Shown here in pieces: positions 3,521 through 42,114 of a stretch of DNA of 64,000 bases. The number at the start of each line of letters is the position of its first letter. Position 1 is the first letter of the stretch. The DNA is from Candidatus Microgenomates bacterium (GTDB lineage Bacteria; Patescibacteriota; Microgenomatia; UBA8517). Below the pieces are notes generated by a model. That model worked only from the letters and a program-made list of their open reading frames with translations. It searched no databases and was not told the origin of the DNA. Where the stretch lies: NCBI GenBank assembly GCA_049519355.1, contig JBEKQV010000003.1, positions 19,646-83,645 of the forward strand, read 5' to 3'. The translations under genes were made by a program, and so were the position numbers.

Positions 3521-4510
3521 TCAGAATAAGTTGGCCCAGATAATCATTGCCTCTTTTAGTTTCTTGAAATATATTCCTTTCGGAAATTTAATTTTCTGAG
3601 CCAGTTCAATATAACATGATTTCGGGTTGTTTCCTTTCAAATTTAATTCCTCGACAGATTTCCATAGAATCTCATTAATTTTCATTCCTTTCAGCTCTTT
3701 TGTACGGTTATGTCCCGTGATTGAGGCTTTTTTGTGATTAACGAAAGGGGATCCATTGACAACACCGGTTTTCAGGTGATCCATTATTTTTTTTGAAAAT
3801 ATTCCGGCCCAAATGTCGTCGTATCTGTCATAACTCCATAGTTTTCCTTTGGGATCAGTTCCCATCATTGGGAAAAACATAATCGGTGTCACCTCCCGTT
3901 TAAACGCAAGGTTCATACTACACATCGGATAAAAAAGTCCAAATGGAATAAATTGGGTTAATGGTGGATAATTCTTCTCGTTCAAAATTTTTGGAAGTTT
4001 GATTTCTGTTTTTGCATCCAGGTCAAGTGCTCCGGACCATAGGCCGTGACTTACACTTACGGAATGAACATCTCTATTTTTGTAGGGGAAACCACGGGTG
4101 AACATCCATTTGGGGTTAGGATATGTTGCTTGCCAACCCACCGGTATTTTCCTTCTTAGATTCTCCAAGTGTTTTTTGACAAAATCTTTTTCGGCAGGGT
4201 AGCAGTCATCGTCAATCGTAATGATTACGTCCGCTCCGGCATTATAGGCTTCCCAGAAGCCAAAGGAACGAATTCCTGCATTTTTTCGGGAAAATATCCA
4301 CGATTTTTTACCAAATTCTTCTTCAATATCTTTGTGGGAGAAGACGGTAACTGAGGAAAACTTTAAATCTGGAATTTTGGCTTTTTTCTCCCACCGGTCT
4401 TCAACAATAATCAGGTGACAACCTGAAAATTCATTCTTCCATCTATTTAGAAATGACAAATTTCTTATTGTAGGAATAACAACGAATACTTTTATTCTTT
4501 CATTCTTCAT
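3521..4510 (-). CDS. GT75 family protein (reversibly glycosylated polypeptide / UDP-arabinopyranose mutase-like)
   Basis: VVIPTIRNLSFLNRWKNEF...HLIIVEDR and IITIDDDCYPAEKD align closely with plant RGP1 (IVIPTIRNLDFLEMWRPFF...HLIIVQDGD and IFTIDDDCFVAKD). The ORF-track start at 4531 is TTG; I use the internal ATG at 4510 (MKNERIKVF), which removes the overlap with the next gene. Confidence 0.7.
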   Translation of the reverse strand: MKNERIKVFVVIPTIRNLSFLNRWKNEFSGCHLIIVEDRWEKKAKIPDLKFSSVTVFSHKDIEEEFGKKSWIFSRKNAGIRSFGFWEAYNAGADVIITIDDDCYPAEKDFVKKHLENLRRKIPVGWQATYPNPKWMFTRGFPYKNRDVHSVSVSHGLWSGALDLDAKTEIKLPKILNEKNYPPLTQFIPFGLFYPMCSMNLAFKREVTPIMFFPMMGTDPKGKLWSYDRYDDIWAGIFSKKIMDHLKTGVVNGSPFVNHKKASITGHNRTKELKGMKINEILWKSVEELNLKGNNPKSCYIELAQKIKFPKGIYFKKLKEAMIIWANLF

Positions 4511-4522
4511 GGTATATATTCT

Positions 4523-5344
4523 ATGCACCAAGTTGGTAAACTTGATATAACACTTGCATTAGGCGAATTTATCATGACACGAATCGAAACACAACAATTT
4601 TTTGAGCTTCTCTGGGGGATGACCGAAAGAGAACTTCGGGCAAGGTATAAATATACTGTTTTCGGATTTTTGTGGATTGTATTGAACCCTGCATTTCAAA
4701 TGTTAATAATTGGTTTCATCTTCAGGTTTTTTATGAAAGAGCCAGTTCAGAATTATTACTATTTTCTTTTTATTGGACTTTTGATTTGGAATTTTTTCTC
4801 TTTATCTTTATCGAAAGCAACTCCCTCAATAGTTTTTGAAAGGACGCTTATAAAGAAAGCGAAGTTCTCGCGTTCGATTATCCCCCTGGCAATTGTTTTT
4901 TCTAATTTTGTTCATTTAATGGTCGCGATGGTTCTTCTTACCGTTCCGGTACTTTTTCTTAACACAATGACCATTACGAGTATTTTCTATATTTTAATCG
5001 CATTTGTTCTACTTCTTGTATTTACGTCGGGTATAAGCCTTCTTTGCGCAGCTTTAGATGTCAGATTTCGTGATGTTAATTTTTTTGTACAGGCATTTAT
5101 AATTTTTTGGTTTTATGCAACGCCGATAATATATCCATTATCAATTGTCCCTTATCAGTATTATTGGCTTTGGCGTTTTAATCCGATGACTGAGATGCTT
5201 CAATTTCTTCAGCACGGTTTCTTGGGGATGCCGCTTCCCGGAACGGCGATGATTATTATAAATACTATGCTAATAATAACCGTGGCGGCTGCGGGGATAT
5301 GGGTTTTCGGTAAAGAAAGTAAAAATTTTGACGATTGGGTATAA
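4523..5344 (+). CDS. ABC-2 type polysaccharide exporter permease (Wzm/TagG/KpsM-like)
   Basis: Six predicted TM segments and a conserved N-terminal ELLWGMTERELRARYKYTVFGFLW motif typical of Wzm/TagG. Immediately upstream of an ABC ATPase. Confidence 0.8.
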   Translation: MHQVGKLDITLALGEFIMTRIETQQFFELLWGMTERELRARYKYTVFGFLWIVLNPAFQMLIIGFIFRFFMKEPVQNYYYFLFIGLLIWNFFSLSLSKATPSIVFERTLIKKAKFSRSIIPLAIVFSNFVHLMVAMVLLTVPVLFLNTMTITSIFYILIAFVLLLVFTSGISLLCAALDVRFRDVNFFVQAFIIFWFYATPIIYPLSIVPYQYYWLWRFNPMTEMLQFLQHGFLGMPLPGTAMIIINTMLIITVAAAGIWVFGKESKNFDDWV

Positions 5345-5349
5345 ATAAT

Positions 5350-6060
5350 ATGAAAATAGATAAAGATTACGCTATTGAACTTTACGGAATTTCAAAAAAA
5401 TATACTATTCATCACGAAAAACCAACTCTTGTCGAGAAGTTTTTTAAGGGACGGGATGAAAAATTTTTGGCGCTTAATAATATTAATTTAAAAATAAATA
5501 GAGGAGAAAGTGTCGGAATAATCGGGGATAATGGTTCCGGCAAGACCACACTTCTAAAAATAATAGCCGGAATTACGGCTCCATCATCCGGTATTATAAA
5601 AGCCGGTGGCAGGGTTGTATCGATAATAGATCTCAATGCCGGTTTTCATGATGATTTGAGTGGGTTTCAGAATATATATCTGAATGGGATGTTTCTTGGC
5701 ATGACAAAAAAAGAAATTGATAGAAAATTAAGGGACATTATTATTTTTGCAGGAATCAGACAATTTATTGACGCGCCTCTTTTTACCTATTCTCAGGGGA
5801 TGAAATTACGTCTCGGTTTTTCCGTGGCCATACATAGCAATCCTGATATTTTACTTCTCGATGAGAATTTTTCTGTAGGAGATGAAAAATTCAAAAAAAA
5901 ATGCAGAGATATTATTAAAAAATTTAGAAAACAAAAGATGACATTATTAATCGCAAGTCACTGGAAACAGTTTATAGACCAAAACTGTGAACGGATAATC
6001 ACTTTAAAAAACGGAAAAATAATAAAAGATATCCATCCCGGTTTAAAGACAAAATCATGA
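5350..6060 (+). CDS. ABC transporter ATP-binding protein (Wzt/TagH/KpsT-like), short form without C-terminal carbohydrate-binding domain
   Basis: Walker A GDNGSGKTTLLKI, signature motif and Walker B LLLDE. The ORF-track start at 5335 is TTG; the ATG at 5350 follows the Wzm stop. Confidence 0.85.
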   Translation: MKIDKDYAIELYGISKKYTIHHEKPTLVEKFFKGRDEKFLALNNINLKINRGESVGIIGDNGSGKTTLLKIIAGITAPSSGIIKAGGRVVSIIDLNAGFHDDLSGFQNIYLNGMFLGMTKKEIDRKLRDIIIFAGIRQFIDAPLFTYSQGMKLRLGFSVAIHSNPDILLLDENFSVGDEKFKKKCRDIIKKFRKQKMTLLIASHWKQFIDQNCERIITLKNGKIIKDIHPGLKTKS

Positions 6061-6767
6061 AGGAGACAACTTTAAAAAAATTTCATTTGAGAAAGGCTTA
6101 TTCTATTTATCGAAACATAAAATGGTCCTTCTTCGACCACAGTTTAGTTAGAAAAGACATTGTTTATAGATTGATTAATCATTACGGAGGCGATTCAGGA
6201 CATAAGATAGAAACCCCCAGCGGCAATTTAGGTTTCGGGTTTATACATTATTGCATAATAAGGAATATCAGGCCGGCAAAAGTTTTATGTATAGGTTCAA
6301 GAATGGGTTTTGTTCCCGCGATATGTGCCTTAGCTTGTAAAGACAATCGATACGGTGTGGTGGAATTTGTTGATGCAGGGTTAGATGAGAGTGATAAGAA
6401 AAGCTGGTCGGGTATAGGTTTTTGGAAAAAAACGGATTTAAAGAAGCACTTCAATGTATCTAAGCTTAATAACTGGATTAATACTTACATAATGACATCA
6501 CAGTCTTTTGCGGATGCATACCCTAAGTGGAAATATGATTATATTTACATAGACGGTGACCATTCTTATGGTGGAGTAAAATTGGATTTCAAATTGTTTT
6601 GGCCGCGGCTTAATAAAAACGGGTTCATGGTGTTTCATGATGCAACAGTTAAAAATTGGGGATCTTTAAAAGGATTCGGTGTCTGGAAATTCCTTAAAGA
6701 AAATAAAAATAGACACAAAATAATTTTTCCTCTCAATGAATCCGGTCTGGCAATATTGCAAAAGTAA
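6057..6767 (+). CDS. Class I SAM-dependent methyltransferase, TylF/MycF-like (family 3 sugar O-methyltransferase; Methyltransf_24)
   Basis: SAM motif I VLCIGSRMGF and the YIDGDHSY motif characteristic of the TylF/MycF/CmcI family. Start ATGA overlaps the Wzt stop. Confidence 0.55.
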   Translation: MKETTLKKFHLRKAYSIYRNIKWSFFDHSLVRKDIVYRLINHYGGDSGHKIETPSGNLGFGFIHYCIIRNIRPAKVLCIGSRMGFVPAICALACKDNRYGVVEFVDAGLDESDKKSWSGIGFWKKTDLKKHFNVSKLNNWINTYIMTSQSFADAYPKWKYDYIYIDGDHSYGGVKLDFKLFWPRLNKNGFMVFHDATVKNWGSLKGFGVWKFLKENKNRHKIIFPLNESGLAILQK

Positions 6768-6776
6768 TGAATTAAA

Positions 6777-8027
6777 ATGTTCGGAATTAAAACTTTCATT
6801 CAAAAAAGAATTATTTACCCTTCGTATCTTTTTCCGGAAAAAAACGGTAAATTTCCGTCGAAGCCGGTTTCCCAAATAAAAATAAATTCCAGACTTTTTG
6901 CCTTAGAAAACAAACTAAAAGAACAAAGGAGTCTTTCGGGGTATGGCAATCTAATAACTTATCCGCGTCGAGATGCAATAAATGTTTGGAAAAGATTGAT
7001 TAACCTTAACCCCAACAATCTTGGTAATTGGTCTATTCGGGAAGTTGTTCCCGGACACGACGCGGCGGAAATTGAACGGGATTTAATTTTTAAAATGGTT
7101 GATCTTTATCATGGTGATAAGAAGAACCTTGAAGGATATGTAACCAGTGGAGGAACTGAAGCTAATATTTTTTCGGCTTGGGTCGGCTGCAAAAGTTTGC
7201 AAAAACGTGGTATCCAAAGACAACAAATGTGTTTAATAAAAACCAGCCTTACACATTATTCAGTCGGCAAAGCAGCAGATGTTGTAGGAGTACCAACCTA
7301 CGTAGTTGGTTTAGACGAGAAGGAGTGGTCCATGGACGTTAACGGTTTTGTTAAAAAGATCGAAAAGTTATCAAAAAGCGGTATGAAGGGTTTTCTCATT
7401 CCTTTGACACTGGGTTATACGGTTACGGGAACGGCGGACCCCTATGAAAGAATATGTATAGAGATCAAGAAACTTAAAGAACAATATGGAGTGGAGTTTT
7501 TTGTTTGGATGGATGCAGCCTTAAACGGGCTTATAGAACCATTTTTAAATAAAAAATTCAGCCCCTTTGAATTATCGGAAATTCAAATTTTTTTGACCGA
7601 TTTTCACAAATTTGGTTTTGTCCCGATTCCGTCCGGGGTAGTTTTATACCGGAGGAGACTACGAAATTTAATTGAAAAGCAAATTGACTATTTGGATGAA
7701 AAAGATAATACCTTGTTAGGATCGCGAAGCGGTATAGCTCCGGTTGCGTGTTGGACGATTATAAATACATTAGGCAAGAGTGGATTTAAGAAAATAATAA
7801 AACGTAATCTAAACAAGAAACAACAATTTATGAGTATATGCAAGAATAGACACCTTTCCATTATCAATAGTGAACGCAGTCTAAACTGTGGAATTATCTT
7901 AAAAGATATGGCTTTATTTGATAAGAAATTTTCAAATAAATACGGCCTTAACTTTAGGAAGATGAAGTTAATGTTTATATCAAAAAATTCTGAATATAAT
8001 ATTGCAAAAGCATTTTTTCTGAAGTAG
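6777..8027 (+). CDS. Group II PLP-dependent decarboxylase (MfnA / glutamate-decarboxylase-like)
   Basis: TSGGTEANIF matches the MfnA/GAD N-terminal motif. DFHKFGFVPIPSGVVLY matches the PLP-lysine region SGHKFGLAPLGCGWV of group II decarboxylases. Confidence 0.7.
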   Translation: MFGIKTFIQKRIIYPSYLFPEKNGKFPSKPVSQIKINSRLFALENKLKEQRSLSGYGNLITYPRRDAINVWKRLINLNPNNLGNWSIREVVPGHDAAEIERDLIFKMVDLYHGDKKNLEGYVTSGGTEANIFSAWVGCKSLQKRGIQRQQMCLIKTSLTHYSVGKAADVVGVPTYVVGLDEKEWSMDVNGFVKKIEKLSKSGMKGFLIPLTLGYTVTGTADPYERICIEIKKLKEQYGVEFFVWMDAALNGLIEPFLNKKFSPFELSEIQIFLTDFHKFGFVPIPSGVVLYRRRLRNLIEKQIDYLDEKDNTLLGSRSGIAPVACWTIINTLGKSGFKKIIKRNLNKKQQFMSICKNRHLSIINSERSLNCGIILKDMALFDKKFSNKYGLNFRKMKLMFISKNSEYNIAKAFFLK

Positions 8028-8059: not shown

Positions 8060-8971
8060 ATGCTTATAACTTTCACAACGACTCAACCTAATATTCCCCT
8101 CAAAATCAAAGATTTAGAAAGAATCGGCAAGTTGGAAGTACTTAAAGGAGTTTATAATAAAAGTGCCAAAACAAAAGATATCCTTTCGAGAACAGAGATT
8201 TTACTTGCCAACCCTAAGTATTTTGGAGTTATTGACAGGAAGGTTATTAGTTTATTTAAAAATTTAAAATATCTTTTTTTAATGTCCTCGGGGTTTGACT
8301 GGGTGGATATCGATTATGCCAAATCCCGAAATATTATAGTTGGGGGAGCTAGGGGGACAACTTCTATAAGTGTTGCCGAACATGCTTGGGCTCTCGCTCT
8401 TACGTTGGCAAAATCTCTCCAAAATGTAACAACCAATTCCGCCGGAGTTATTAATACGCAGATTCATGGAAAAACAGTGGGGATATTTGGTTACGGATAC
8501 GTTGGAAAGGCAATAGCAAATATTGCACAAGGCTTCGGTGCCGAAGTTTGTTATACCTCAAGCCACAGATTAAAAGATTTGAGAAATAGACGATTTTTAA
8601 ATAAAGATGAACTATTAAGGAAATCCGACATAATATTTCTTTGTTTGCCATTAACAAAAGATACTAGAAATTATTTAAGTTCGGGTGAAATAGAATTATT
8701 AAAAAAGAATGCAATATTGATTAACACGGCAAGAGAAGATCTGGTAGAAAACAAACCGCTTTTTAAGGCATTGAAAACAGGTAGACTTTTTGGTTATGGG
8801 ATTGATACGGATAAACGAAATTCAACTTTCCTCAAAAAAAATAGGCAACTGCGCATTGTATCAACATTCCACGCGGCGTATCGGACCGCAGAAGCGCTTG
8901 AAGCAATATATTCCGATACTGCAAAAGATGTTGAAGCTTTTATAAAAGGGAAGCCGCTAAGTATTTTATAA
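8060..8971 (+). CDS. D-isomer-specific 2-hydroxyacid dehydrogenase (glycerate/phosphoglycerate dehydrogenase-like, no ACT domain)
   Basis: NAD-binding GKTVGIFGYGYVGKAIA...GAEV, catalytic Arg in ILINTARED and His in STFHAAYRT. Confidence 0.75.
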   Translation: MLITFTTTQPNIPLKIKDLERIGKLEVLKGVYNKSAKTKDILSRTEILLANPKYFGVIDRKVISLFKNLKYLFLMSSGFDWVDIDYAKSRNIIVGGARGTTSISVAEHAWALALTLAKSLQNVTTNSAGVINTQIHGKTVGIFGYGYVGKAIANIAQGFGAEVCYTSSHRLKDLRNRRFLNKDELLRKSDIIFLCLPLTKDTRNYLSSGEIELLKKNAILINTAREDLVENKPLFKALKTGRLFGYGIDTDKRNSTFLKKNRQLRIVSTFHAAYRTAEALEAIYSDTAKDVEAFIKGKPLSIL

Positions 8972-9683
8972 ATCTGGATCTCAGTAAATTTTCAAATCTC
9001 TTCAGATCGTGTATAAGAAGATTTATATTATTGTAGTTGAAATCACCAACATTATTTTTGCCCCAGTTATTTATAAAAATTGTTTTAAAACCGAGTTTAC
9101 CGGCAGGAACTATGTCCTGTTTTTCGGAGTCGCCGACATAAATTACATGGTCAGGAAGTATCCGGCCAAGGGATTTTAAAAGTAAATTAAAAGATTTTTT
9201 TGAGGGTTTAAGCTCGTCGAGGTCATTGGTGGTAATTATTTTGACGAAAACTTCCGACGGATTTTTTACTCCCAACTTATGAAGAGAGTTGAAAGTTTGT
9301 TGGATATCGGAATTTGTGAATAGAAAATTTTCCTTTGAACTTATTTTGAAATAGTTGGCCAATTTTAAGTTTTGACGAACGTATTTATCCTTTACGATTC
9401 CTTTTTCGATAGTAAACATAAGTTTTTTTGTATTTAAATTGCCGGTTTCCCGGATAATATCAATCCAATCCACCCCTTTTCTTTCGAGTTCAATAAAATT
9501 ATTTTTATTATTTTTGCTTTGCCTGACATAATACTGAATATATTTTTTACGAAGATGATTAATAAGCGAGGGATTAAAATACAAAGTACCGTCCAAATCC
9601 CAAACAATTATTTTTGCGTGCGAATAATCCTTCAGCAGCAAAAGCAAAGTTTTGTATCTTTTTAATTTTTTTGATAAAGTCAT
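8940..9683 (-). CDS. HAD-superfamily hydrolase (phosphatase)
   Basis: Motif I IIVWDLDGTL (DxDGT) and motif IV VIYVGDSEKQDIVPAGKLG. It is the lone minus-strand gene in a plus-strand run and overlaps the 3' end of the dehydrogenase gene by 32 bp. Confidence 0.65.
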   Translation of the reverse strand: MTLSKKLKRYKTLLLLLKDYSHAKIIVWDLDGTLYFNPSLINHLRKKYIQYYVRQSKNNKNNFIELERKGVDWIDIIRETGNLNTKKLMFTIEKGIVKDKYVRQNLKLANYFKISSKENFLFTNSDIQQTFNSLHKLGVKNPSEVFVKIITTNDLDELKPSKKSFNLLLKSLGRILPDHVIYVGDSEKQDIVPAGKLGFKTIFINNWGKNNVGDFNYNNINLLIHDLKRFENLLRSRFIKYLAASLL

Positions 9684-9802: not shown

Positions 9803-10786
9803 ATGTCAGTGACTATAAAGCAAAAATTTAAAAAAATACTTGCCAGGCACTACGAAGATTTATCTGCAATAAAAAGCATTGAGACCTTTCTAAAGAAAAA
9901 AAGAGGCTATGTTATTCGTATGCCCAAGCCGGGATCAGACATAATACATTTGGTTTCAGGGGGAATGGATTCAATAACCACATGGGCGATTCTTATGGAA
10001 AAATATAAACTAAAGGTTCACCCCGTGGCTATAGAAACAGGCCAAGGTAAACACAAATCCGAACTAAGATCTCTTTCGTTTTATTCAAAAATGTTTAAGA
10101 AAAGATACCCCGATTTATACGTTGAGCCCTTTAAAATTACGTACCCCTCATCTCCTCCCGAGATAAAACAGATGCTAACGGTTGATTTAGAGAAAACCGT
10201 ACACCCGGATGTAATTAAAAAGTATTTTAATGCCAACAATAATACCGTTATATTAAAACGAAAATTTTTATATCCGGCATTTGTTGCCTTTCCAGCTGCA
10301 CGGGTTGCACTTTTCTTTGAAATGCAAAGGAATAAAAAAATCAGGGCTATTTCAACGGGAATTCTTCCGTCCGATGGTTATTACAATGAAAGCCAAACTT
10401 TGACAGCCTTACGTGGAGCCATGTTTGCTCTTTGTACATTTACTAATGATTACAATTGGCAGATATTCAGTTTGTGTTTTGAGAAAGAGATACACAGTCT
10501 TTATACAAAAGCCGATCTGGTTAAGTGGGCTTACGCAAACAATCTTCCGCTAGAAAACACATATAGCTGTCTGATGAACTTCGATAAAAACTGTGGGATT
10601 TGCGTCAATTGTCAGGTAAGAAAAAAAGCTTTTAAAAAAGCTGGCGTTAAGGATATCACTGAGTACGAAAGTGAAAGCATCTCCGTCCATAAGTTTATGA
10701 CACAAAAATTGGCAAAAACGCATAATCTGGTAAAATATAAACTTCTTCATAAAAAAAAGATAATTATTAAAGATTATACTCAATAA
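9803..10786 (+). CDS. QueC-like PP-loop ATP pyrophosphatase (ExsB/QueC/WbuX family; candidate sugar amidotransferase/amidoligase)
   Basis: PP-loop LVSGGMDS plus a C-terminal Zn-ribbon-like CLMNFDKNCGICVNCQVR, as in QueC. At 327 aa it is ~100 aa longer than QueC, with N- and C-terminal extensions. It sits in a glycan locus, not a queuosine locus. Confidence 0.6.
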   Translation: MSVTIKQKFKKILARHYEDLSAIKSIETFLKKKRGYVIRMPKPGSDIIHLVSGGMDSITTWAILMEKYKLKVHPVAIETGQGKHKSELRSLSFYSKMFKKRYPDLYVEPFKITYPSSPPEIKQMLTVDLEKTVHPDVIKKYFNANNNTVILKRKFLYPAFVAFPAARVALFFEMQRNKKIRAISTGILPSDGYYNESQTLTALRGAMFALCTFTNDYNWQIFSLCFEKEIHSLYTKADLVKWAYANNLPLENTYSCLMNFDKNCGICVNCQVRKKAFKKAGVKDITEYESESISVHKFMTQKLAKTHNLVKYKLLHKKKIIIKDYTQ

Positions 10787-10932
10787 AATATTGCGGCATT
10801 TTATGAAAGCGTACAGTTTACAATATGAATAAGAACTTAGGATATTTTACTGCTCTAGCTTTTTTTGACATAAACGGAAAAATTACGGCACGAGGGCTTG
10901 CATTTCAGAAGTTATTAGTTTATCCGTAAGTT

Positions 10933-11700
10933 ATGTCAAATTATTTTTTAAACATATTTGAAACCAGATTTAAAAAGTTATATGGCAATGGAATTTTCAA
11001 TTTAAACGACGATATATTGTCAAATGCTGAAGTATTGGATGCTATCGAAAAAATGCCTGATGACGGCACCAAGGAGATTGCTAAATTTGTTACGACCAGG
11101 TTTGGTTTAAACAAAAAAATAAAGAAAATAGTTATCTTGGGTTCCGGTAGCGGAAAATTAGGAACCCGACTGGCGGATTACTTTAAAAATTCAATAATTG
11201 TAGATATCGACAAAAGCAGTCCCGTTATAAAGAGATTAAAAAATATTTTTAATAGGGACAAATTAAGAATGCCAAAACTTGGTGACGCACGTAACATACC
11301 GCTTGAAAAGGGTAGCGTTGATTTAATAGTTGCCTATAGCACCCTGAGGTATATAAATGATAGACGCAAAGTAATAGAAAGTATCAATAAGATTTTAAAA
11401 TCTGGTGGCTATGCCGTAATTGTAGAGGCAAGAGCAATAGATGTGGTGGAGGATATTGAATCCACCCTGAAAAATAAAAGAATTGCTTTTACCCGTAATA
11501 CGGAAAATAATATTCTTTTTTCGAGAACAAGTTTTTTTTATTACCTGGTTCTGGAATCTTCTAAAAACAAGATTTTGAAAAACAGGATTGAAAAAGTTGA
11601 AAACAAGAACAATTCGAGTTTTTTGGAGGCGGCTTTGAAATGTGCAGGCAAGTATAAAGGCTCGCTTTATTATGTAAGCTGGCAAAAGAAAAATGGTTAA
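10933..11700 (+). CDS. Class I SAM-dependent methyltransferase (Methyltransf_11/25-like)
   Basis: Motif I VILGSGSGKLG, post-I acidic DID and motif II/III VDLIVAYSTLRYI...LKSGGYAVIVE. Confidence 0.7.
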   Translation: MSNYFLNIFETRFKKLYGNGIFNLNDDILSNAEVLDAIEKMPDDGTKEIAKFVTTRFGLNKKIKKIVILGSGSGKLGTRLADYFKNSIIVDIDKSSPVIKRLKNIFNRDKLRMPKLGDARNIPLEKGSVDLIVAYSTLRYINDRRKVIESINKILKSGGYAVIVEARAIDVVEDIESTLKNKRIAFTRNTENNILFSRTSFFYYLVLESSKNKILKNRIEKVENKNNSSFLEAALKCAGKYKGSLYYVSWQKKNG

Positions 11701-12799
11701 AGACTTTCACTTAAATTTTGTTGATATCGACAATAGGGAAGTAGAATCCGTTAGACGGGTGTTATTATCAAGGCACCTTGAACGGGGTTCTGTTACAAAA
11801 TTTGTTGAAAAAAAGTTAAAACATTTAATTAACGTTAAGAACGCAGTTTTAGTTAGTAATGCAACAGGAGCACTAATCGCTGGCCTAAAGGCATCGGGAA
11901 TAGGATTTGGAGATGAAGTTCTAACCACACCTTTTACATTCGCGGCCACAGTCAATGCGATTTCTTTAGTAGGAGCAGTTCCTGTTTATGTTGATATTGA
12001 CCCGGAGACTTTTAATCTGGACCCCGAAAAGATTGAAGAAAAAATATCCAGAAGGACGAAAGCAATATTGACTGTTGATCTTTTCGGACTTCCTTGCGAT
12101 TACGAAAAGATCGGCGTTATTGCCAAGAAACACAATTTGGTGGTTATTGCCGATTCGAGCCAAGCCTTCGGTTCTTTATTTAACAATAAGTACTTTTTTC
12201 CTAATGTAAGTTTGCAGGTTTTTTCATTCTTTATCTCGAAAGTTATAACTGCAGGGGAGGGAGGTTTGGCGATAACAAATAACAAGGAAATTGCCGATAA
12301 TTTCAATATATTTATCAACCATGGCCAGAAAAGAGGCAGTAAATATAAGTTCATTGCCTGTGGATGGAATTTCCGGCCAACCGATATCGAAGCGGCTATC
12401 ATTAAGAGCCAGTTGGGAAAATTAAACAGGATAATTTCAAAGAGGAAAAGGAACGCTAGATATCTTACGCAAAAACTTAAAAATACAAAAGGCCTTATTC
12501 TTCCCTCTGTTGGGATAAACCGGGAACATTCATTTTCCAGATATACGGTTAGGATTGGTAAAGATTTTAGGTCAACACGCGAACAAGTTATTAATTATTT
12601 GAGGAAAAATGGAGTTGAAACTGATGTTATCTATCCCAAACCTTTATATTTTTATAAACATTTATCTTTCGGGTTTGGCAAAGGAAGTTGTTTAGAATCC
12701 GAACGAGCTTCCCGTGAAGTTTTGACAATTCCTGTTCATCAAAATCTTACGAATAAGGATTTGGGCCACATTTGTAAATGCATTAAAGATAAAAGCTAG
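11693..12799 (+). CDS. DegT/DnrJ/EryC1/StrS-family PLP-dependent sugar aminotransferase
   Basis: N-terminal VLVSNATGALIAGLKA...GDEVLTTPFTFAATVNAI and the PLP-lysine region FSFFISKVITAGEGG. Start overlaps the preceding methyltransferase stop by 8 bp. Confidence 0.85.
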   Translation: MVKDFHLNFVDIDNREVESVRRVLLSRHLERGSVTKFVEKKLKHLINVKNAVLVSNATGALIAGLKASGIGFGDEVLTTPFTFAATVNAISLVGAVPVYVDIDPETFNLDPEKIEEKISRRTKAILTVDLFGLPCDYEKIGVIAKKHNLVVIADSSQAFGSLFNNKYFFPNVSLQVFSFFISKVITAGEGGLAITNNKEIADNFNIFINHGQKRGSKYKFIACGWNFRPTDIEAAIIKSQLGKLNRIISKRKRNARYLTQKLKNTKGLILPSVGINREHSFSRYTVRIGKDFRSTREQVINYLRKNGVETDVIYPKPLYFYKHLSFGFGKGSCLESERASREVLTIPVHQNLTNKDLGHICKCIKDKS

Positions 12800-12900
12800 T
12801 GAAATCGGGCGCCGGCTCCATTTTTGATACATCCGTCCGTGTTTGCCCGTAGATTGCATGCGAAATTGATTATATTTATAATGACGGATACCCGCGCGTG

Positions 12901-14004
12901 ATGTACAACAAAAAGACATTAATTCAGAAGTGCCCCATATTTTACAATTCGTTGTCTGTAACTAAATTTGACGGGTATTCATTTATATTTATTCACCACC
13001 TTACTCAAAGTAACGCTCCGTTTTTAGCGGCTTGGATAAAAAAGGTAAAAACAATTGGAGTTATTTCAATACCTTATTCGGAAGTAATGATGGTTAAAAA
13101 GAAGTTGGGCAGATTGGTTAAAGTATTTTCGCCAAAAAGCGTTGATCAAATTCCCAAATTGTTGTTGGAGCTTAGCCAAAGAAGTCCGAAGGAAAAAATT
13201 GTCCTTGTTGAAGTTGGCGGATATTCATCACTAGTTTCAGATAAGTTAAAAAATGTCGTTTTTGGAATTGAGGACACCTCACAAGGGCACTGGCTGCAAG
13301 TTAAAAACCACAATCTTAGGTATCCTGTTGTTAGTATTGCAGATACAAAAGCCAAAAGAATAGAAGATCGGTACGTAGGAGAGTCGATAGTAAGAACTAT
13401 CGATCACGTTTTAAAAAAGCATAATTCTGTTTTTGGAAACAAAGAGAAAATTTATTCGGTTTTGTCTTACGGAAGAATAGGCGAATCCGTTTGTCTTGCT
13501 CTGAGGGACAGAGGAGTGCGCCCTTACGTCTTTGACACAAATATTTTCAAAAGGGCCCTGGCTATCGCTGACGGATATTTGTCTTCGGAGCGAAGCAGGC
13601 TTCTTAGGATATCCGATGTAATAATAGGTTGTAGCGGTAGGCGAAGCATAACAAAAAACGATATTGGTCTACTTAAACCCGGAAGTTGTCTTTTTAGCGG
13701 TTCCTCCAAGCAAGTCGAATTTGAAGAGATTTTAAATTATATGGACCGCGACTCGGGCGATAACCAACTGAAAGTATTAGATTTCGGAAATAAAAAAAGT
13801 TGGATTGGATATTTTGGGCAACCGATCAACTTTTTAGATACCACAGATTCAGAGATGTTTGATGTACCGTTCGCCTTGCAGGTCGAGTGCTTCAACTACT
13901 GGAAATCAAGTAAGTTAGCGAATAAAGTTTACACTCTCCCGATGGTATATCAGCGAAAGATTCTGGATCTTTACGTTAAATTTAATAATCATAAACAGCT
14001 TTAG
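12901..14004 (+). CDS. Hypothetical NAD-binding Rossmann protein, distantly adenosylhomocysteinase-NAD-domain-like
   Basis: YGRIGESVCLALRDRGVRPYVFDTN...ALAIADGY...DVIIGCSGRRSIT resembles the SAHH NAD-binding domain pattern (GYGxVGKGxA...D...ALQA..G...DI.VT.TG). The first ORF-track codon is GTG; the ATG is at 12901. Confidence 0.3.
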   Translation: MYNKKTLIQKCPIFYNSLSVTKFDGYSFIFIHHLTQSNAPFLAAWIKKVKTIGVISIPYSEVMMVKKKLGRLVKVFSPKSVDQIPKLLLELSQRSPKEKIVLVEVGGYSSLVSDKLKNVVFGIEDTSQGHWLQVKNHNLRYPVVSIADTKAKRIEDRYVGESIVRTIDHVLKKHNSVFGNKEKIYSVLSYGRIGESVCLALRDRGVRPYVFDTNIFKRALAIADGYLSSERSRLLRISDVIIGCSGRRSITKNDIGLLKPGSCLFSGSSKQVEFEEILNYMDRDSGDNQLKVLDFGNKKSWIGYFGQPINFLDTTDSEMFDVPFALQVECFNYWKSSKLANKVYTLPMVYQRKILDLYVKFNNHKQL

Positions 14005-17928: not shown

Positions 17929-18081
17929 ATGGTTGAATCGATAAAACAACTTCTTTTATTGGTTAAGAACACAAAGAAAGACTGGTTAATTCCGGTTATT
18001 TTATTTTTTATTATCGTGGCTATGCTTATCATTGCTTCTCAAATTGTGCCAATACCATTCTTTATATATCCAATTGTATGA
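17929..18081 (+). CDS. Tiny membrane protein (50 aa), not in the ORF track
   Basis: ATG at 17929; translation MVESIKQLLLLVKNTKKDWLIPVILFFIIVAMLIIASQIVPIPFFIYPIV with one TM helix. Its stop overlaps the next start (ATGA). Such small ORFs commonly precede carbamoyltransferase genes. Confidence 0.4.
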   Translation: MVESIKQLLLLVKNTKKDWLIPVILFFIIVAMLIIASQIVPIPFFIYPIV

Positions 18082-18263
18082 AAAGATTAATCACAGCCAT
18101 AAATACTTTTATGATTCAAGTTATTTTGTTCTTCGTATATTTTGTAGCCATTGGAATCGCAGCCGCACTTTATAGACTACAGAAAGCAAGTTCAAAGAAT
18201 CACGGTTTATGGAATAAGAAAAATTTCCCAGCAAATCGAGATTATTTCCTGTCTCCTTATTGA
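18078..18263 (+). CDS. Small membrane protein (61 aa)
   Basis: One TM helix (VILFFVYFVAIGIAAALY). Translationally coupled between the 50-aa ORF and the carbamoyltransferase (stop at 18263, next ATG at 18265). Confidence 0.4.
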   Translation: MKRLITAINTFMIQVILFFVYFVAIGIAAALYRLQKASSKNHGLWNKKNFPANRDYFLSPY

Positions 18264-18264
18264 T

Positions 18265-19950
18265 ATGTATATTCTTGGAATCTCCGCGTTTTATCATGAT
18301 AGTGCAGCATCCTTACTAAAAGATGGAGTGGTAATAACTGCAGTAGAAGAGGAGAGGTTTACAAGAATTAAACATGACAATTCTTTTCCATACAAAGCCA
18401 TTGAATATTGTCTTGTTAGTAATAATCTATCTATTAAGGATATTAATTATGTGGCTTATTATGAAAAACCACTTTTGAAATTTGAGAGGATTTTGGAAAC
18501 TTTTGTTGAAACCTATCCTTTTTCATTATATCCGTTTATAAAAGCTATACCGGAATGGTTGGGTGAAAAGATAAAGGTTGGTGCAATTATAAAGAAGAAA
18601 CTTGGATATAAAGGTGAAATATATTATATTCCCCATCATTTATCTCACGCTTCTGCAGCATTCTTTACCTCTCCTTTCAAGAGAGCGGCGATATTAACTG
18701 TGGACGGGGTTGGAGATGTATCAACCACGGATATGTGGATGGGGGAGTTAGGTAAAATAACAAATGTTGGCGAAATTTTCTTCCCAAACTCTTTAGGACT
18801 TTTTTACTCTACATTAACTGCCTTTTTGGGTTTTAGAGTAAATAGTGATGAATACAAAGTGATGGGTCTCGGTGCTTACGGTAATCCTACCTATAAACAA
18901 AAACTAGCACGATTGATTAAAATTAATGACGATGGCAGTTTCGAATTAGATTTAAGCTATTTTGCATTTCGGGAATCTTTTCGGATGTGGAGCAGAAAAT
19001 TTGAATCAGAATTTGGAAGCCATCGAAATCCGGGGGAACCAATAACTCAGCGACATAAGGATATGGCTGCCAGTTTACAAGTAGTTACTGAGGACGTTTA
19101 TTTTGGAATTCTCAATAATTTGTATAAAAAAACGCATATCAAAAACTTATGTATAAGTGGAGGTGTTGCATTAAACTCTCTTGCAAACGGGAAGATTTAT
19201 AAAAATACTAAATTTAGAAATATTTACGATTTTGGACCCGCCGGGGACAGTGGAACTTCTCTTGGCGCGGCACTCTTTTTATATACAAGTGTTTTGAAAC
19301 ATCCAAGACCAAAAGCTGTCAAAACGCTTTGCTTAGGATCCGAATATGCCGAGAGTTATATAGAGCATGTTTTGGAAAAAAATGGTCTGAAGTATGAGAA
19401 AATTGACAACCAAAAGATGTTAATTGACAAAGTTGCGCATAACCTTAAAAAGAACGACGTAATCGGATGGTTTCAAGGAAGAATGGAGTTTGGCCCGAGG
19501 GCTTTAGGATCCCGATCCATTTTAGCAAACCCGAAATCTGCAGGCATGAAGGATGTTGTTAATAAAATTAAGAAACGCGAAAGCTTCCGTCCATTTGCGG
19601 CATCAGTGCTTCAGGAGAAAGTTCAAGAACTCTTTGATGTACCAGAAAAGAACCACAAGTCACCCTATATGAACTTTTGTTTTGAGGTAAAAGATGAAGC
19701 AAAAAGAAATATTGCGGCAATAGTTCATGAAGATGGTACATGCAGGATCCAAACGGTTTGTGAGGATAACGGCTTGTTTTATAAGTTAATAAAGCGATTC
19801 TATTTTCTAACTGGCATACCCTGCCTTTTAAATACAAGCTTTAATTTATCCGTTGAACCGATCGTTGAGAAACCGGAGCAGGCAATATATGATTTTACTA
19901 ATAGTTCTTTGGATGTGTTGGTGATAGGTAATTTTATTGTTACAAAGTGA
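18265..19950 (+). CDS. Carbamoyltransferase (NodU/CmcH/NovN family)
   Basis: N-terminal ILGISAFYHDSAASLLKDGVVITAVEEERFTRIKHD is the canonical Carbam_trans_N signature. ATG at 18265 (MYILGIS) rather than the upstream in-frame extension. Confidence 0.85.
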   Translation: MYILGISAFYHDSAASLLKDGVVITAVEEERFTRIKHDNSFPYKAIEYCLVSNNLSIKDINYVAYYEKPLLKFERILETFVETYPFSLYPFIKAIPEWLGEKIKVGAIIKKKLGYKGEIYYIPHHLSHASAAFFTSPFKRAAILTVDGVGDVSTTDMWMGELGKITNVGEIFFPNSLGLFYSTLTAFLGFRVNSDEYKVMGLGAYGNPTYKQKLARLIKINDDGSFELDLSYFAFRESFRMWSRKFESEFGSHRNPGEPITQRHKDMAASLQVVTEDVYFGILNNLYKKTHIKNLCISGGVALNSLANGKIYKNTKFRNIYDFGPAGDSGTSLGAALFLYTSVLKHPRPKAVKTLCLGSEYAESYIEHVLEKNGLKYEKIDNQKMLIDKVAHNLKKNDVIGWFQGRMEFGPRALGSRSILANPKSAGMKDVVNKIKKRESFRPFAASVLQEKVQELFDVPEKNHKSPYMNFCFEVKDEAKRNIAAIVHEDGTCRIQTVCEDNGLFYKLIKRFYFLTGIPCLLNTSFNLSVEPIVEKPEQAIYDFTNSSLDVLVIGNFIVTK

Positions 19951-20951: not shown

Positions 20952-23900
20952 TTAATCAAGCTTAAATGATACATCAGTTGTAAAAGATGGGGATGTGACA
21001 TTGCATCTTATTGCCGGGCATTCTTCTGTCTTAATGATATTCCCGGTTGATGGATTAAACCACTGTATTTCTCCCTCACTTTTTGTGGATATTGTTAAAG
21101 TAAACGTTGTAGGGGTAAACGGGCTAGAATAGTGATAAAAATACCCCGCATTAATACTGTCTGAAATTAGTCCGTATCCTCTTACTCCAAATTTATCGAG
21201 TGCATATTGAACACTTTTTGAATCTAATGGAAATGATTGTGAGAAATTTTGGAGTATGCGGGTATATGACCGCTCTACATCTCCTAAATAAATATTTGCG
21301 TTTAAATTTTCCCCCACTTTTATGTTGGTGGAGTCGGATTGATTCCAAAACATAAGTATGCCTTGTTGAAAGAAAGCTGTCCATGCACGAATTCGCATAC
21401 GATCTGCAGACGTTTGATCGTCGTTGGATTGGTAATTGCCCTGCTCTGCAAAGACCACTGGCTTTGGATAATTTTCGAATTGTTGAATGTGCTGGACAGT
21501 CGTTAAATCGGACTGCGATATGTTTTCGGTTTCATACCAGTGTGGGGCGATAATGTCCGAATCTCCGTAGTTATAAGGTTCTGAGCTTATGCTTATTGGT
21601 CTGTTTTCATAGTCAAGTGACCTTATTTCATCGGTAAGAAGCGTTGAAGTTGAGTCGGGGACGATAACCTCGTTAGCCAATTCCCAAATGTCAACATATG
21701 CGCCATATCTTGCAAAAACATAACGTATGTAAGACGTAAGTAAATATTGGGTGGCGGGATCTTGTGAACCTTTGAAGGGTATATCAAATCCAAAAAGGGT
21801 TAACCATACGTGGATATCATTATTTCTTAAAGATTCGACAAGGGTATCTCCGATTTTACCCTGAAGAATTGAATATTCAGTTGGAAAACCGAATTCATTC
21901 CAAAGTCCCATAGATGAGTTCAGCAAACTCCAACGAAACATGTTGAACCCCGCGCCGGCCGGGCCGTATGCGGAAATGTAATCATTCAAAGAGTTAATTT
22001 TGTCGCTTCTAAAAGAATTTGTGTAGCCGAATCCGTTTGGATTGGCGAGTGGAGTGCTGTTTCCGATTGCCCAATCGTCTAGTGGGGTACCGTCGTAATT
22101 GAAATCAATCATCGTATCTCCTATGCCCAATCCGTTAAATATGGTTTTACCATCAGTTGTCAAACGTTTAGGATTTGTAAGATTTGTACGTAGGTAGAAA
22201 TTTGAGGTATCAGTTGTTGATGTCAATTCACCGGTTTTTGTTAAGGTTTTACCATGAGGCACCCAAATTATTTTCCACGTCCATTTTCCTTTAAGTGGAG
22301 GGTTGAAGCGGACTTTCCATATATTTTGATCGTAATAAAATCCCGGTATTTCAACCACTCTTCCTGATTCATGAGTAAATACTGCTGTTAAGTCCGCCTC
22401 CCGCCACGGATTTACAAAAGTTCCACTCGATTTTAACGTCAACTCAAAAACGTTAACACTTGCAATTTTTGTGAATGATTGGGAAACTTCAAATTGCTGA
22501 TCACCGGAAGTTAAATCCGGTAAGCCGGTATTATCATTGATCTTGTAAATTACGCCATCGGAAGTGGCAAAAAATATGTATTTGCCGCTTAGATACGGGT
22601 CTATGTTAGAACTTGTAGGGGCATTTGCAGAAAATTCCCAAGATGTTTTCCCTGTACCCCCGTTTATATAAAAAAGATCACCAGACTGATTGCTTACAAA
22701 ATAATCTGGTGTAAACGGGTTTAACCACCCAGGTATAAGTCCCGCTAACACGGGTTTAATAAGTGCTGGGCTATTAACAAAACCCAGGCTTGGTACTTCT
22801 GCTGATTTTTTCCCGGATGCAAGGGATAATGTGATAGCTTTTCCGTCTTGACTTGTCAGCATCGCTTTGGATTTCCAGAATGAGGGATAATTTAAACCTT
22901 GTCCGAGCTCGTCTGACTGCCAGATAATTGCTCCAGTTTTACCGTCTCTTCTAACAACCGTTCCGTCTTCATGCACCTCAAAATATGCAATTGGTCCTAT
23001 TGAAAACCAATTGTGAATATAGTTGTTTATATTGGCTAGGTATTGCAATATCGGGTTATCAGAGGTTGAGAAAGATGACATTACTGTTGTGGATGAAATC
23101 GGGGATCCGCTTGTAACTTCCCAGAGGATTTTACCGGTATATTTATCAAGGGCTATAGATTTGTTGGAATTTGTGGCTATAAAAAGATATTTGCCGTAAA
23201 GTTCAGGGCCGTTGGTCATAAGGTCACCAATATCGGTTTTCCATAAAATCTTGCCTGTATTTAGGCGAAGCGCATAAAGTGTTTTATCGCGGCTGGCAAC
23301 GTAAACAGTATTGTTTGCTACAGTTAAATCGCCGAAGTAATATATTCCCCAACCGTTAATTACGGAAGAGAGGGTATATAAAGGTTTTGGGGTAAATTTC
23401 CATAAGAGTTTTCCGTCGCTTAGTCTCAGAGCGCTTAATGAGCCGTCTTCGCTTGCAGCAAGGACGTAGTTTTTATAGATTGTAGCTTTTTGAAAAAAGT
23501 ACTGATTGTCTGTCGAAACCTGCCAAATCACTTTTTGATTTCCAATATTTATAAGCCAGACCTTATCGTCAGAAATTGCCAGGATGTTATTTCCGGATAT
23601 TGCTTGTGGTGTTACATTACCGTTTAGATCAAGAATTTGTGTTTTTCCTTGTATTGAGGTATTCGTGAAGTATAGTTTTTTATCATTCGTTCCAAAAATT
23701 AAAGTGTTATCCTTTTTAAACAGCTGACCTTGTATTTCACCATCAGCGACGAACGAGGACCATGTGTTTGAAGATCTTTCATGTATAAATAAAAATATAC
23801 CAAATAGGAGTAGACAAAATCCAAGAAGTGCAAGTATTTTATTATTGTACCTTTTGAAAAAGGTTGAGGTTTTGCGAGGCTTAGACATAAGGGTATTATA

Positions 23901-42028: not shown

Positions 42029-42114
42029 ATCGTTTGTCAGCTTTAGCACCTTTCCTGAACTTTTACTTCAGGGGGCTGTTGGCGGATCATTAGGCTGACT
42101 CCCTCCCCGCGCTC

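Follow-up and report, generated by a model that had tools for sequence, protein, structure and literature searches.

The PP-loop enzymes of Pfam family PF06508 were surveyed in 2026, and the groups recognized there are QueC, QatC, Cap9, LarE, PfkB-linked and WbpG-type proteins, GMP synthase and three small archaeal clusters. The same survey describes QueC, Cap9 and QatC as enzymes that use ATP to activate a carboxylate and form an amide; QueC itself takes free ammonia as the nucleophile, and Cap9 and QatC modify protein N-termini, the canonical QueC pocket being kept in Cap9. Here we report on a QueC-like gene in a 64-kb stretch of DNA (hereafter the window) from a Candidatus Microgenomates bacterium, a member of the candidate phyla radiation (CPR, or Patescibacteria). 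From our analyses, all of them computational, we conclude that its product, no isolated oddity, represents a branch of an undescribed family of considerable size, that this family is not among the groups of the 2026 survey, and that the enzyme may be an amide ligase that decorates an exported surface glycan.

The open reading frame (ORF) starts with ATG, is closed by a stop codon and encodes 327 amino acids (aa). It is a real gene and no chance ORF, because its product matches the Pfam QueC model (49.1 bits; gathering cutoff 22), has full-length homologues in a word-indexed search (E-values 1e-137 to 1e-54) and belongs to a family with 229 close representatives, described below. Alignment with hhalign of a 14-sequence family profile against a profile of ten canonical QueCs paired residues 45-291 of the window protein with residues 2-219 of the ~231-aa QueC reference (probability 99.5%, E 1e-22). 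The reference QueCs were taken from genome loci and each carries the VPxRN, YPDC-type and CY...CGxCxxC motifs; one of them adjoins a QueE-like gene. Relative to QueC, the window protein is extended by 44 aa at its N-terminus, contains insertions of about 29 aa in total inside the core, mostly within residues 105-160, and has a net C-terminal gain of about 25-36 aa. The AlphaFold model has a predicted local distance difference test score (pLDDT) of 83 and a predicted template-modelling score of 0.78. Its N-terminal helices, at residues 3-13 and 20-34, reach pLDDT 85-97, some stretches of the internal insertions are modelled with low confidence, and the secondary structure of the C-terminal tail has moderate or low confidence. 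An earlier reading of this DNA (the original prediction) had named the SGGxDS PP-loop, the QueC-type cysteine cluster and the length of 327 aa, which are all present exactly as quoted, and an N-terminal extension of ~45 aa, which agrees with our alignment; its figure of ~60 extra C-terminal residues was too high, the insertions inside the core making up another part of the added length.

The QueC signature was established experimentally in a 2026 study as SGGxDS, Y35xQxHxxE, VPxR99N, Y131PDC, K165 and a zinc motif with Y189 (E. coli numbering), and the E. coli mutants Y35A, R99A, Y131A and Y189A were all inactive. In the window protein the PP-loop reads SGGMDSIT and the C-terminal cysteine cluster, of QueC type, reads C256-LMNFDKN-C264-GI-C267-VN-C270-QV-R273. 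QueC K165 is kept as K236, which is invariant or nearly so, and E42, the Glu of YxQxHxxE, as E87, which is invariant among the 14 aligned sequences. Five other elements are replaced: Y35 by T79, H39 by K83, N100 by K153, Y-P-D-C by E196-S-Q-T199, and the Tyr that follows the first Cys of the zinc site (Y189) by L257. QueC R99 corresponds to R152, which is kept only in the window protein's own clade (clade A) and lies in a low-confidence region; the mapping as a whole follows the profile alignment, the middle of which is of low confidence. Judged from the aligned residues, the window enzyme has retained the ATP and zinc scaffolding and lost the 7-carboxy-7-deazaguanine pocket.

Scores, phylogeny and gene context point the same way. 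The protein reaches 38.8 bits with TIGR00364 (equivalog cutoff 150.3) and 13.9 bits with PRK11106 (cutoff 378), and in a neighbour-joining tree of the core, computed without support values, the family forms a separate single clade outside canonical QueC. A phmmer search for QueD and QueE recovered no homologue from the window or from the family loci, and Tgt, QueA, QueF and FolE do not occur in the Pfam annotation of most of the larger window ORFs. Canonical QueC was rejected, as score, motifs, phylogeny and gene context all disagree with it, and neither half of the refuting condition set in the original prediction, conserved pocket residues and a position inside the QueC clade, applies. The original prediction, that this is no queuosine enzyme and has no queuosine genes nearby, is thus borne out, and the label of the identical NCBI protein MGA2910851.1, 'MAG: 7-cyano-7-deazaguanine synthase [Candidatus Microgenomates bacterium]', which the JGI name repeats, is almost certainly a misannotation.

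By sequence, the nearest solved chains are Cap9, QueC and QatC, which match only at the PP-loop and the zinc ribbon, and the best superposition of the model is with Cap9 (template-modelling score, TM, 0.73 on the target). Both defence-system proteins, QatC and Cap9, were tried as identifications and rejected, since the matches are weak and partial and the partner genes are not present. The QatC equivalog NF041925 scores 34.6 bits against a cutoff of 280, in the zinc-ribbon region only; the PADLOC models gave 26.4 bits for QatC and 48.6 bits for QueC (Cap9), the latter over partial stretches only. No KAP ATPase, TatD, cGAS/DncV-like nucleotidyltransferase (CD-NTase), Cap10 or tRNA-guanine transglycosylase (TGT)-like protein, or QatA, QatB or QatD neighbour is present among the annotated ORFs of the window.

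The family is much larger than the 14 members returned by the word-indexed search had suggested. An exhaustive hidden Markov model search of 1.84 billion representatives yielded 5,867 matches at E≤1e-3 and 229 at E≤1e-30, which overturned the impression of a tiny family; it comprises at least about 230 representatives at 50% identity. Most of the matches span the profile from about position 2 and hence include the N-terminal extension. In an alignment of 149 members, E18, R34, P41, P74, D191, R204 and K236 are invariant or at least 90% conserved. The PP-loop has an invariant G54 and D56, with at least 90% conservation of S52, G53 and S57; at the zinc site, the four cysteines and R273 are invariant and G265 is invariant or at least 90% conserved. 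The window protein carries every one of the family's hallmark positions. Named members belong to the Microgenomates, Shapirobacteria, Parcubacteria and Saccharibacteria, all of the CPR/Patescibacteria; a few from metagenome-assembled genomes (MAGs) are labelled 'uncultured Gammaproteobacteria', labels that could not be confirmed. In the literature searched, the family, its hallmarks, the seven-gene cassette presented below and the PqqD-linked branch are not described, whereas the scaffold and its general chemistry are already known; a full-text search returned no paper linking QueC with PqqD or with the recognition element (RRE) of peptides made on the ribosome and modified after translation (RiPPs).

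Members of the family also occur in other settings. A Saccharibacteria relative (locus L012, 6896-12192) has a decarboxylase, a nucleoside phosphorylase, a phosphoribosyltransferase (PRTase), an HD hydrolase and a B12-binding radical S-adenosylmethionine (SAM) enzyme nearby, and in another member (protein P0132) the QueC-like part is joined to a Ham1/ITPase domain. For some branches of the family the substrates may be nucleobase-like.

We compared the gene context in 16 independent loci and two short contigs, by Pfam and by phmmer with seed proteins, and three context types emerged: type 1 (eight loci), which consists of clade A and its sister P0034; type 2 (five loci), the other short forms; and type 3 (three loci), in which proteins of ~400-430 aa carry a fused C-terminal PqqD domain. 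The order QueC-like gene, class I SAM methyltransferase (Methyltransf_11, MT_11), DegT aminotransferase is found in all eight type-1 loci, and the cassette is kept across lineages whose QueC-like proteins are only 37-66% identical to that of the window. A 2-hydroxyacid dehydrogenase (2-HADH), the sole oxidoreductase of the cassette, is present in six of the eight. Seven have a phosphoesterase, which is a metallophosphoesterase in L001, L003, L006, L007 and L008 and a haloacid dehalogenase-type (HAD) protein in the window and L043. A pyridoxal phosphate (PLP) decarboxylase occurs in six, three of group II and three of the Orn/Arg type (fold-type III); a second methyltransferase (Methyltransf_24, MT_24) and the Wzm/Wzt exporter are likewise present in 6/8 each. 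Across type 1 and type 2 together, a decarboxylase of one of two unrelated folds accompanies the QueC-like gene in 10 of 13 short-form loci, as does MT_24. Since phosphatase and decarboxylase are each replaced by unrelated folds, amine production and dephosphorylation appear to be the activities that the cassette needs.

Locus L043 has exactly the seven genes of the window, with housekeeping genes upstream and the contig end just after the decarboxylase, and L041 repeats the wider window set, including Wzy_C, DUF4330 and a beta-propeller protein. The exporter genes adjoin the QueC-like gene in L001, L005-L008, L010, L011, L041 and L042. Type-2 loci have a decarboxylase (4/5), MT_24 (4/5), Wzm/Wzt in most and a separate ~90-aa PqqD gene (3/5), and MT_11, DegT and 2-HADH are absent. 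A C-terminal tail of the form '...K-I-x-I-K-D-Y-(T)-Y/Q', with K/N-D/H-Y as its more general type-1 pattern, is shared by clade A, with divergence in P0001/P0002, and by P0034; it is absent from the PqqD-linked relatives examined and occurs only in lineages with the MT_11/DegT cassette. The features of the window and of the PqqD-linked relatives are compiled in Table 1.

Table 1. Positions of the cassette, of sites within the QueC-like gene and of features in loci of PqqD-linked relatives. Positions without a locus label refer to the window.
Feature	Position	Strand	Basis or remark
ABC-2 exporter: Wzm-like permease; Wzt-like ATPase	4523-5344; 5335-6060	+	Pfam; contiguous, on the same strand as the cassette
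SAM methyltransferase (MT_24)	6057..6767	+	Pfam; paired with the decarboxylase in most loci
Group II PLP decarboxylase	6777..8027	+	Pfam, NCBIfam; nearest to histidine/serine decarboxylases
D-isomer-specific 2-hydroxyacid dehydrogenase (phosphoglycerate/glycerate/lactate type)	8060..8971	+	Pfam, NCBIfam; below the cutoff of all equivalogs
HAD-IA phosphatase-like hydrolase	8940..9683	-	Pfam, NCBIfam
QueC-like PP-loop ATP pyrophosphatase gene	9803..10786	+	327 aa; clade A; Pfam QueC, hhalign, tree
Family-specific N-terminal extension, residues 1-44, two predicted helices	9803..9934	+	Outside the QueC alignment
PP-loop S52-G-G-M-D-S57 (ATP alpha/beta-phosphate binding)	9956..9973	+	Aligns with the QueC and Cap9 PP-loops
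Zinc-ribbon-type cluster C256-x7-C264-x2-C267-x2-C270, then R273	10568..10621	+	Spacing as in the reference QueCs
Hallmark motif D284-x-T286-x-Y288, C-terminal of the zinc ribbon	10652..10666	+	At least 90% conserved, 149 members
C-terminal tail, residues 292-327, predicted helix and terminal beta-strand	10676..10783	+	Ends K-I-I-I-K-D-Y-T-Q
Class I SAM methyltransferase (MT_11)	10933..11700	+	Pfam; directly downstream of the QueC-like gene
DegT/DnrJ/EryC1-family PLP aminotransferase	11693..12799	+	Pfam 321.9 bits; PseC-like, below cutoff
QueC-PqqD fusion genes	L038 8001-9248; L039 7421-8566; L040 8001-9224		RiPP-like clusters
Short ORFs with lasso-leader-like motif (23-51 aa)	L005 9494-9601; L010 3951-4061; L038 7796-7930; L039 7090-7245; L040 7661-7765 (all on the - strand)		
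193-aa conserved proteins beside the QueC-PqqD gene	L038 7209-7790; L039 6478-7059 (both on the - strand)		

On this basis we infer that the window enzyme is an ATP-dependent, carboxylate-adenylating amide ligase decorating an exported glycan, a reading to which we assign a probability of roughly 40%. The QueC-like protein would be the amide-bond-forming step of a conserved, largely self-contained cassette (MT_24, PLP decarboxylase, 2-HADH, phosphatase, QueC-like enzyme, MT_11 and DegT aminotransferase) that would be co-transcribed with the Wzm/Wzt exporter in the surface-glycan locus. Its PP-loop would bind ATP, a carboxylate would be adenylated as in QueC, Cap9 and QatC, and an amine would then displace AMP to give the amide. 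Such chemistry is within the known range of the scaffold, because QueC, Cap9 and QatC all pass an ATP-activated carboxylate to a nitrogen nucleophile. The nucleophile would be an amine built by the cassette and not free ammonia from a glutaminase. It could arise by either of two routes, through decarboxylation of an amino acid or through oxidation of a phosphorylated 2-hydroxy acid followed by transamination by the DegT enzyme; 2-HADH, aminotransferase and phosphatase could together turn a glycolytic intermediate into an amino acid or amino alcohol that carries a phosphate. The structural neighbours of the decarboxylase in the Protein Data Bank (7erv, 8jij) are histidine and serine decarboxylases, which yield primary amines. 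The phosphatase would trim the amine, the methyltransferases would tailor it, and the decorated glycan or its precursor would leave the cell through Wzm/Wzt. A reversed polarity could also apply, in which DegT would make the amine and a small acid would be coupled to it, as in Cap9. The original prediction had left the source of the ammonia or amine unclear; the neighbouring decarboxylase and the DegT/2-HADH/phosphatase group offer a likely answer, and the source is probably the cassette itself.

The nearest parallel to this logic that has been worked out is the amide of serinol or ethanolamine on glucuronate, in which the ligating enzyme is an unrelated one. In the HS:2 capsule system of Campylobacter jejuni, which belongs to the ABC-transporter pathway, Cj1437 transaminates dihydroxyacetone phosphate to serinol phosphate and Cj1436 decarboxylates phosphoserine to ethanolamine phosphate. 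The C-terminal domain of Cj1438 then amidates the C6 carboxylate of glucuronic acid on the growing chain, using ATP, and the HAD phosphatase Cj1435 afterwards strips the phosphate.

The glycan setting claimed in the original prediction holds up. Glycan genes extend over ~2.9-31 kb of the window and include a Bac_transf enzyme, a homologue of reversibly glycosylated polypeptides (RGPs), Wzm/Wzt, several glycosyltransferases of families GT1 and GT4, a PMT-like GT-C protein, a carbamoyltransferase, and Wzy_C with DUF4330. The best NCBIfam matches of the exporter are galactan Wzm/Wzt and teichoic-acid TagH, all below cutoff. Plasmid homologues of MT_24 lie in or beside glycosyltransferases and rhamnan-synthesis-F proteins, and no Wzx-type (Polysacc_synt) flippase occurs among the ORFs annotated up to ~37 kb. 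The glycan assignment is supported because the exporter matches galactan and teichoic-acid types, the MT_24 relatives are glycan-linked and no Wzx-type flippase is annotated. A different pairing of MT_24 and decarboxylase, as a microcin-C-like MccD/MccE aminopropylation pair, was rejected, as the plasmid tblastn search returned glycan-associated methyltransferases and no MccD. Scans for promoters and terminators gave promoter-like sites at chance level and no information on operons.

Several observations weigh against the proposed role. No uronic-acid-forming enzyme, such as a UDP-sugar 6-dehydrogenase, was found in the glycan region of the window. The nearest structures to the DegT protein are perosamine synthetase, Gln:scyllo-inosose aminotransferase, WbpE and NtdA, which are sugar or inosose aminotransferases and not small-keto-acid transaminases, and it could act on a nucleotide sugar that originates elsewhere. 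No cassette partner reaches an equivalog cutoff, and the tree that places the family outside QueC carries no support values. QueC uses free ammonia, which may therefore be the nucleophile here too, and the lowest Foldseek E-values belong to tRNA thiolases, a point taken up below. Finally, elsewhere in the family there are ties to PqqD domains, to peptides of leader type, to YcaO and to proteins resembling signal peptidases; the ancestral substrate may have been a peptide, and the window enzyme could act on a protein encoded elsewhere. A sugar substrate is therefore not to be presumed.

The PqqD-linked relatives are the source of the peptide alternative, and in them the link is strong. About a quarter of the top family matches carry a C-terminal PqqD domain, which Pfam confirmed in 7/8 long forms that were tested; an additional long form bears an S24/S26 peptidase domain. 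Each of the three fusion loci also encodes another PqqD, a ScmC protein related to HprK and an NTP_transf_5 protein; in L038 and L039 these are joined by a protein resembling signal peptidase I, a YcaO of the SagD type and a dehydrogenase of the nitroreductase family; partners of relatives include a lasso-type PqqD chaperone. Separate PqqD genes flank the short forms in L005, L010 and L042. In L005, tandem QueC-like paralogues (10001-11898; 320 and 322 aa, sharing 35-38% identity with the protein of the window) stand after a PqqD gene and before Wzm/Wzt.

Y-x-x-P-x-L is the leader motif of lasso peptides that is bound by PqqD-type B1 proteins. Short ORFs in the PqqD-linked loci have the register K/R...Y(0)-x-x-P(+3)-x-[VLI](+5)...h(+10)-x-h(+12), or K-K-Y-x-x-P-x-[VLI]-x4-h-x-h, and five of them lie 4-391 bp from the QueC-like gene, in 5/6 PqqD loci. 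This extended pattern occurs 15 times in 336 kb against a mean of 5.4 after shuffling, whereas the bare Y..P.[VLI] motif is not enriched (55 observed, 55-94 in shuffles); the signal is meaningful only for the extended register taken together with its position. The role of the PqqD-type B1 protein, an RRE, in lasso-peptide machinery is documented in the literature. The 193-aa proteins of L038 and L039 open with the same leader-like motif (KRKY[IK]xPK), after which come GVWGGSG, a stretch rich in Cys and a region that weakly matches an intein N-terminus (Hint-like), and look like an unusual precursor-like protein.

The window enzyme might accordingly modify a ribosomal peptide or protein, either by ligating a carboxylate to such a target or by activating a peptide carboxylate; the cassette would then supply the small-molecule partner, and the target would be encoded elsewhere or be the enzyme's own C-terminal tail. 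We consider this unlikely, though several observations speak for it: the fused and flanking PqqD proteins and leader-register ORFs of the relatives, their YcaO, chaperone, ScmC and signal-peptidase-like partners, the action of Cap9 and QatC, the nearest solved relatives, on protein N-termini, and the conserved tail specific to the window's cassette type. Yet neither a PqqD domain nor a PqqD gene is found in any of the eight type-1 loci, the window and the clade-A loci included, no leader-motif ORF occurs anywhere in the 64 kb, and no conserved small ORF lies near the type-1 cassettes. In type 1 the PqqD link is replaced by MT_11, DegT, 2-HADH and phosphatase, which suggests a changed substrate class in the window's clade. 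The tail ends variably, in Q or Y and with T present or not, an unusual trait in a substrate acting through its C-terminal carboxylate, and because of this variation docking of the tail on a cassette partner seems likelier than its being a substrate. The tail of clade A was also considered as a fused precursor peptide, to which we give a low probability: its likeness to the leader register is weak, with P at +2 instead of +3 and not in the window's own tail, and its end is variable.

Tentatively, the two contexts could be united in one scheme, which we regard as possible but doubtful: a hitherto unrecognized QueC-fold amide-ligase family, centred on the CPR, with one branch, fused to or partnered by PqqD, of ATP-dependent ligases or cyclases for a new lasso-like class of ribosomal peptides, and a second branch represented by the glycan-decorating cassette of the window. 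In the former, the QueC-like protein would take the place of the Asn-synthetase-like cyclase and a signal-peptidase-like enzyme that of the leader protease. The latter would have dropped peptide recognition and become a self-contained cassette of seven genes that makes an amine out of central metabolites and amidates with it a surface glycan exported by an ABC transporter.

Another reading within the glycan locus is an ammonia-dependent amidotransferase acting on a sugar, which would turn a uronate or another sugar carboxylate into a primary carboxamide or an N-acetyl into an acetamidino group, the neighbouring amine-forming enzymes serving other steps. Conversions of this kind are ascribed to AsnB-like enzymes of the WbpS type and to PP-loop enzymes of the WbpG/WbuX/PseA type in O-antigen and flagellin-glycan pathways. 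PP-loop chemistry and the use of free ammonia by QueC are compatible with such an activity, a DegT sugar-type aminotransferase is encoded two genes downstream, and PF06508-related N-acetyl-sugar amidotransferases are already known from O-antigen loci. The latter, the WbuX/WbpG proteins (cluster 5 of PF06508), are marked by SGGxDSxY and by a CxxC(x)6CxC cluster with a YDC triad, in an order reversed relative to QueC. Membership was rejected, as the motif architecture of the window protein is wrong and no model matches: TIGR03573 is not among the NCBIfam matches at E≤1, and the N-acetyl-sugar amidotransferase structure 8wex ranks only 46th in Foldseek (TM ~0.3). Glutamine amidotransferase (GATase), HisF and HisH/HisF-type partners are absent from the annotated ORFs of the window, as the original prediction had stated. 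An ammonia-dependent enzyme would also leave unexplained the repeated tight coupling to decarboxylases and phosphatases of interchangeable folds and the PqqD link of the relatives, and would lack a uronate-forming enzyme nearby, so that we judge it improbable. The suggestion in the original prediction that the scaffold serves another amidation chemistry remains the best reading in this glycan locus, while its comparison with WbuX/WbpG holds as an analogy only. DpdC, also named there, has no counterpart in the form of a Dpd-type model among the NCBIfam and PADLOC matches or of dpd-like neighbours; no explicit DpdC alignment was run.

A sulfur-transfer role of the TtuA/NcsA/ThiI/LarE type, in which the protein would use ATP to act on a nucleoside or cofactor-like substrate, is very improbable. 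The tRNA thiolases TtuA, NcsA and ThiI have the lowest Foldseek E-values, the distant relative in L012 stands among nucleoside-metabolism genes, and one relative has the Ham1 fusion. But the superpositions on the thiolases are poor (TM 0.24-0.35, root-mean-square deviation 11-19 Å) compared with that on Cap9, the cysteines form a QueC-type Cys4 zinc ribbon and not a three-Cys [4Fe-4S] site, only one further Cys (C211) is semi-conserved, and the cassette has no sulfur-carrier or cysteine-desulfurase gene; the Fe-S thiolase interpretation of these top Foldseek matches was rejected on the first two of these grounds. A genuine though divergent 7-cyano-7-deazaguanine synthase, for which the Pfam match, the conserved PP-loop and zinc cluster and the public records speak, is hardly credible given the equivalog scores, the loss of three tyrosines whose exchange for alanine abolishes function, the separate branch, the lack of deazaguanine pathway genes and a conserved gene context of quite a different kind.

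Further features of the window and related loci are recorded here as side observations. Directly after the DegT gene, a 368-aa protein (12898-14004, +) has no Pfam match and no counterpart in other family loci; a weak adenosylhomocysteinase-like match (NCBIfam 48.7 bits) covers much of its length. The RGP homologue (3521-4531, -; PF03214, 176.7 bits) is encoded next to the priming enzyme Bac_transf, and RGP genes also occur in the glycan regions of L039 and L041. In plants, reversibly glycosylated polypeptides are UDP-arabinopyranose mutases. A 50-aa predicted membrane peptide (17929-18081, +) is encoded just upstream of the carbamoyltransferase (18151-19950), with similar small ORFs in L008, where one adjoins the carbamoyltransferase homologue, and in L039. 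On the opposite strand, 20952-24974 encodes a 1,340-aa protein in which a GT4/GT1 glycosyltransferase is fused with DUF5060 and a PQQ-like beta-propeller; in L041, Wzy_C/DUF4330 is followed by the gene of a related beta-propeller. The Wzy_C gene (O-antigen ligase/polymerase-like) and the DUF4330 gene that follows it (26153-28506) recur as a pair near the cassette in L006, L041 and L042, and may, in a cell that has no outer membrane, constitute a step that transfers glycan to protein or to the wall. A sortase gene is located at 47322-47909. The G+C content is ~0.34-0.36 across most of the glycan locus at 4-32 kb and 0.42-0.47 across most of the remaining window (~0.35 for the 2.9-31 kb region against ~0.43 elsewhere), and a tyrosine-recombinase (integrase) gene (40017-40970) adjoins that of MetK (40967-42049, -).

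The assignment matters for annotation as well as for CPR biology. The QueC label is likely to be propagated across CPR genomes, in which it would falsely suggest a queuosine/deazaguanine pathway, and the new family adds a further repurposing of the PF06508 scaffold. The epibiotic lifestyle of CPR bacteria depends on the cell surface, the glycan chemistry of which is essentially unknown, and a portable cassette that provides its own precursors offers a concrete way into it that can be cloned. If the proposed role is correct, the window enzyme would mark the first appearance of the QueC fold in glycan decoration. The PqqD-linked relatives and the leader-motif peptides beside them point towards a class of ribosomal peptides, so far unexplored, in organisms that are generally regarded as poor in natural products, and the clusters in L038, L039 and L040 may represent such an undescribed class in CPR bacteria.

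Compared with the described systems, the window protein resembles QueC in whole-fold homology, in SGGxDS, in K236 as the counterpart of K165, in the C-x7-C-x2-C-x2-C cluster with its Arg, and in E87, and differs from it by its extensions, replaced substrate motifs, sub-cutoff score, missing que context and own clade. With Cap9 of type IV cyclic-oligonucleotide-based anti-phage signalling systems (CBASS) and QatC of QatABCD it shares a QueC fold that has been, or in its case would be, repurposed to join a carboxylate with an amine other than ammonia, and the wider new family is also linked with peptide or protein recognition. In contrast to Cap9, which is a minimal core of ~185 aa, it has 327 aa, a remodelled pocket and no deazaguanine pathway nearby. 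WbpG, WbuX and PseA are likewise PP-loop enzymes of surface-glycan loci and are thought to carry out ATP-dependent, amidation-type sugar chemistry, but the window protein lacks SGGxDSxY, has its cysteines at the QueC position, is distant from 8wex and is not accompanied by HisH/HisF-like partners.

Likeness to lasso-peptide machinery is confined to the relatives, which combine a PqqD-type RRE with a PP-loop enzyme, a separate protease and short precursor ORFs with a leader-like motif. Even there the enzyme has the QueC fold and not the AsnB fold, and the protease is signal-peptidase- or S24-like and not transglutaminase-like; the window's clade has neither RRE nor precursors. The C. jejuni HS:2 system differs from the window in that the predicted ligase of the window is of the QueC fold, that 2-HADH and two methyltransferases are added and that no uronate source was identified. 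The C-terminal domain of Cj1438 is an ATP-grasp enzyme, hence of a fold unrelated to the QueC-like ligase. What the two systems appear to share is an amine supplied by a decarboxylase or aminotransferase, ATP-dependent ligation, a phosphatase and ABC export, a resemblance that would be one of logic and not of ancestry.

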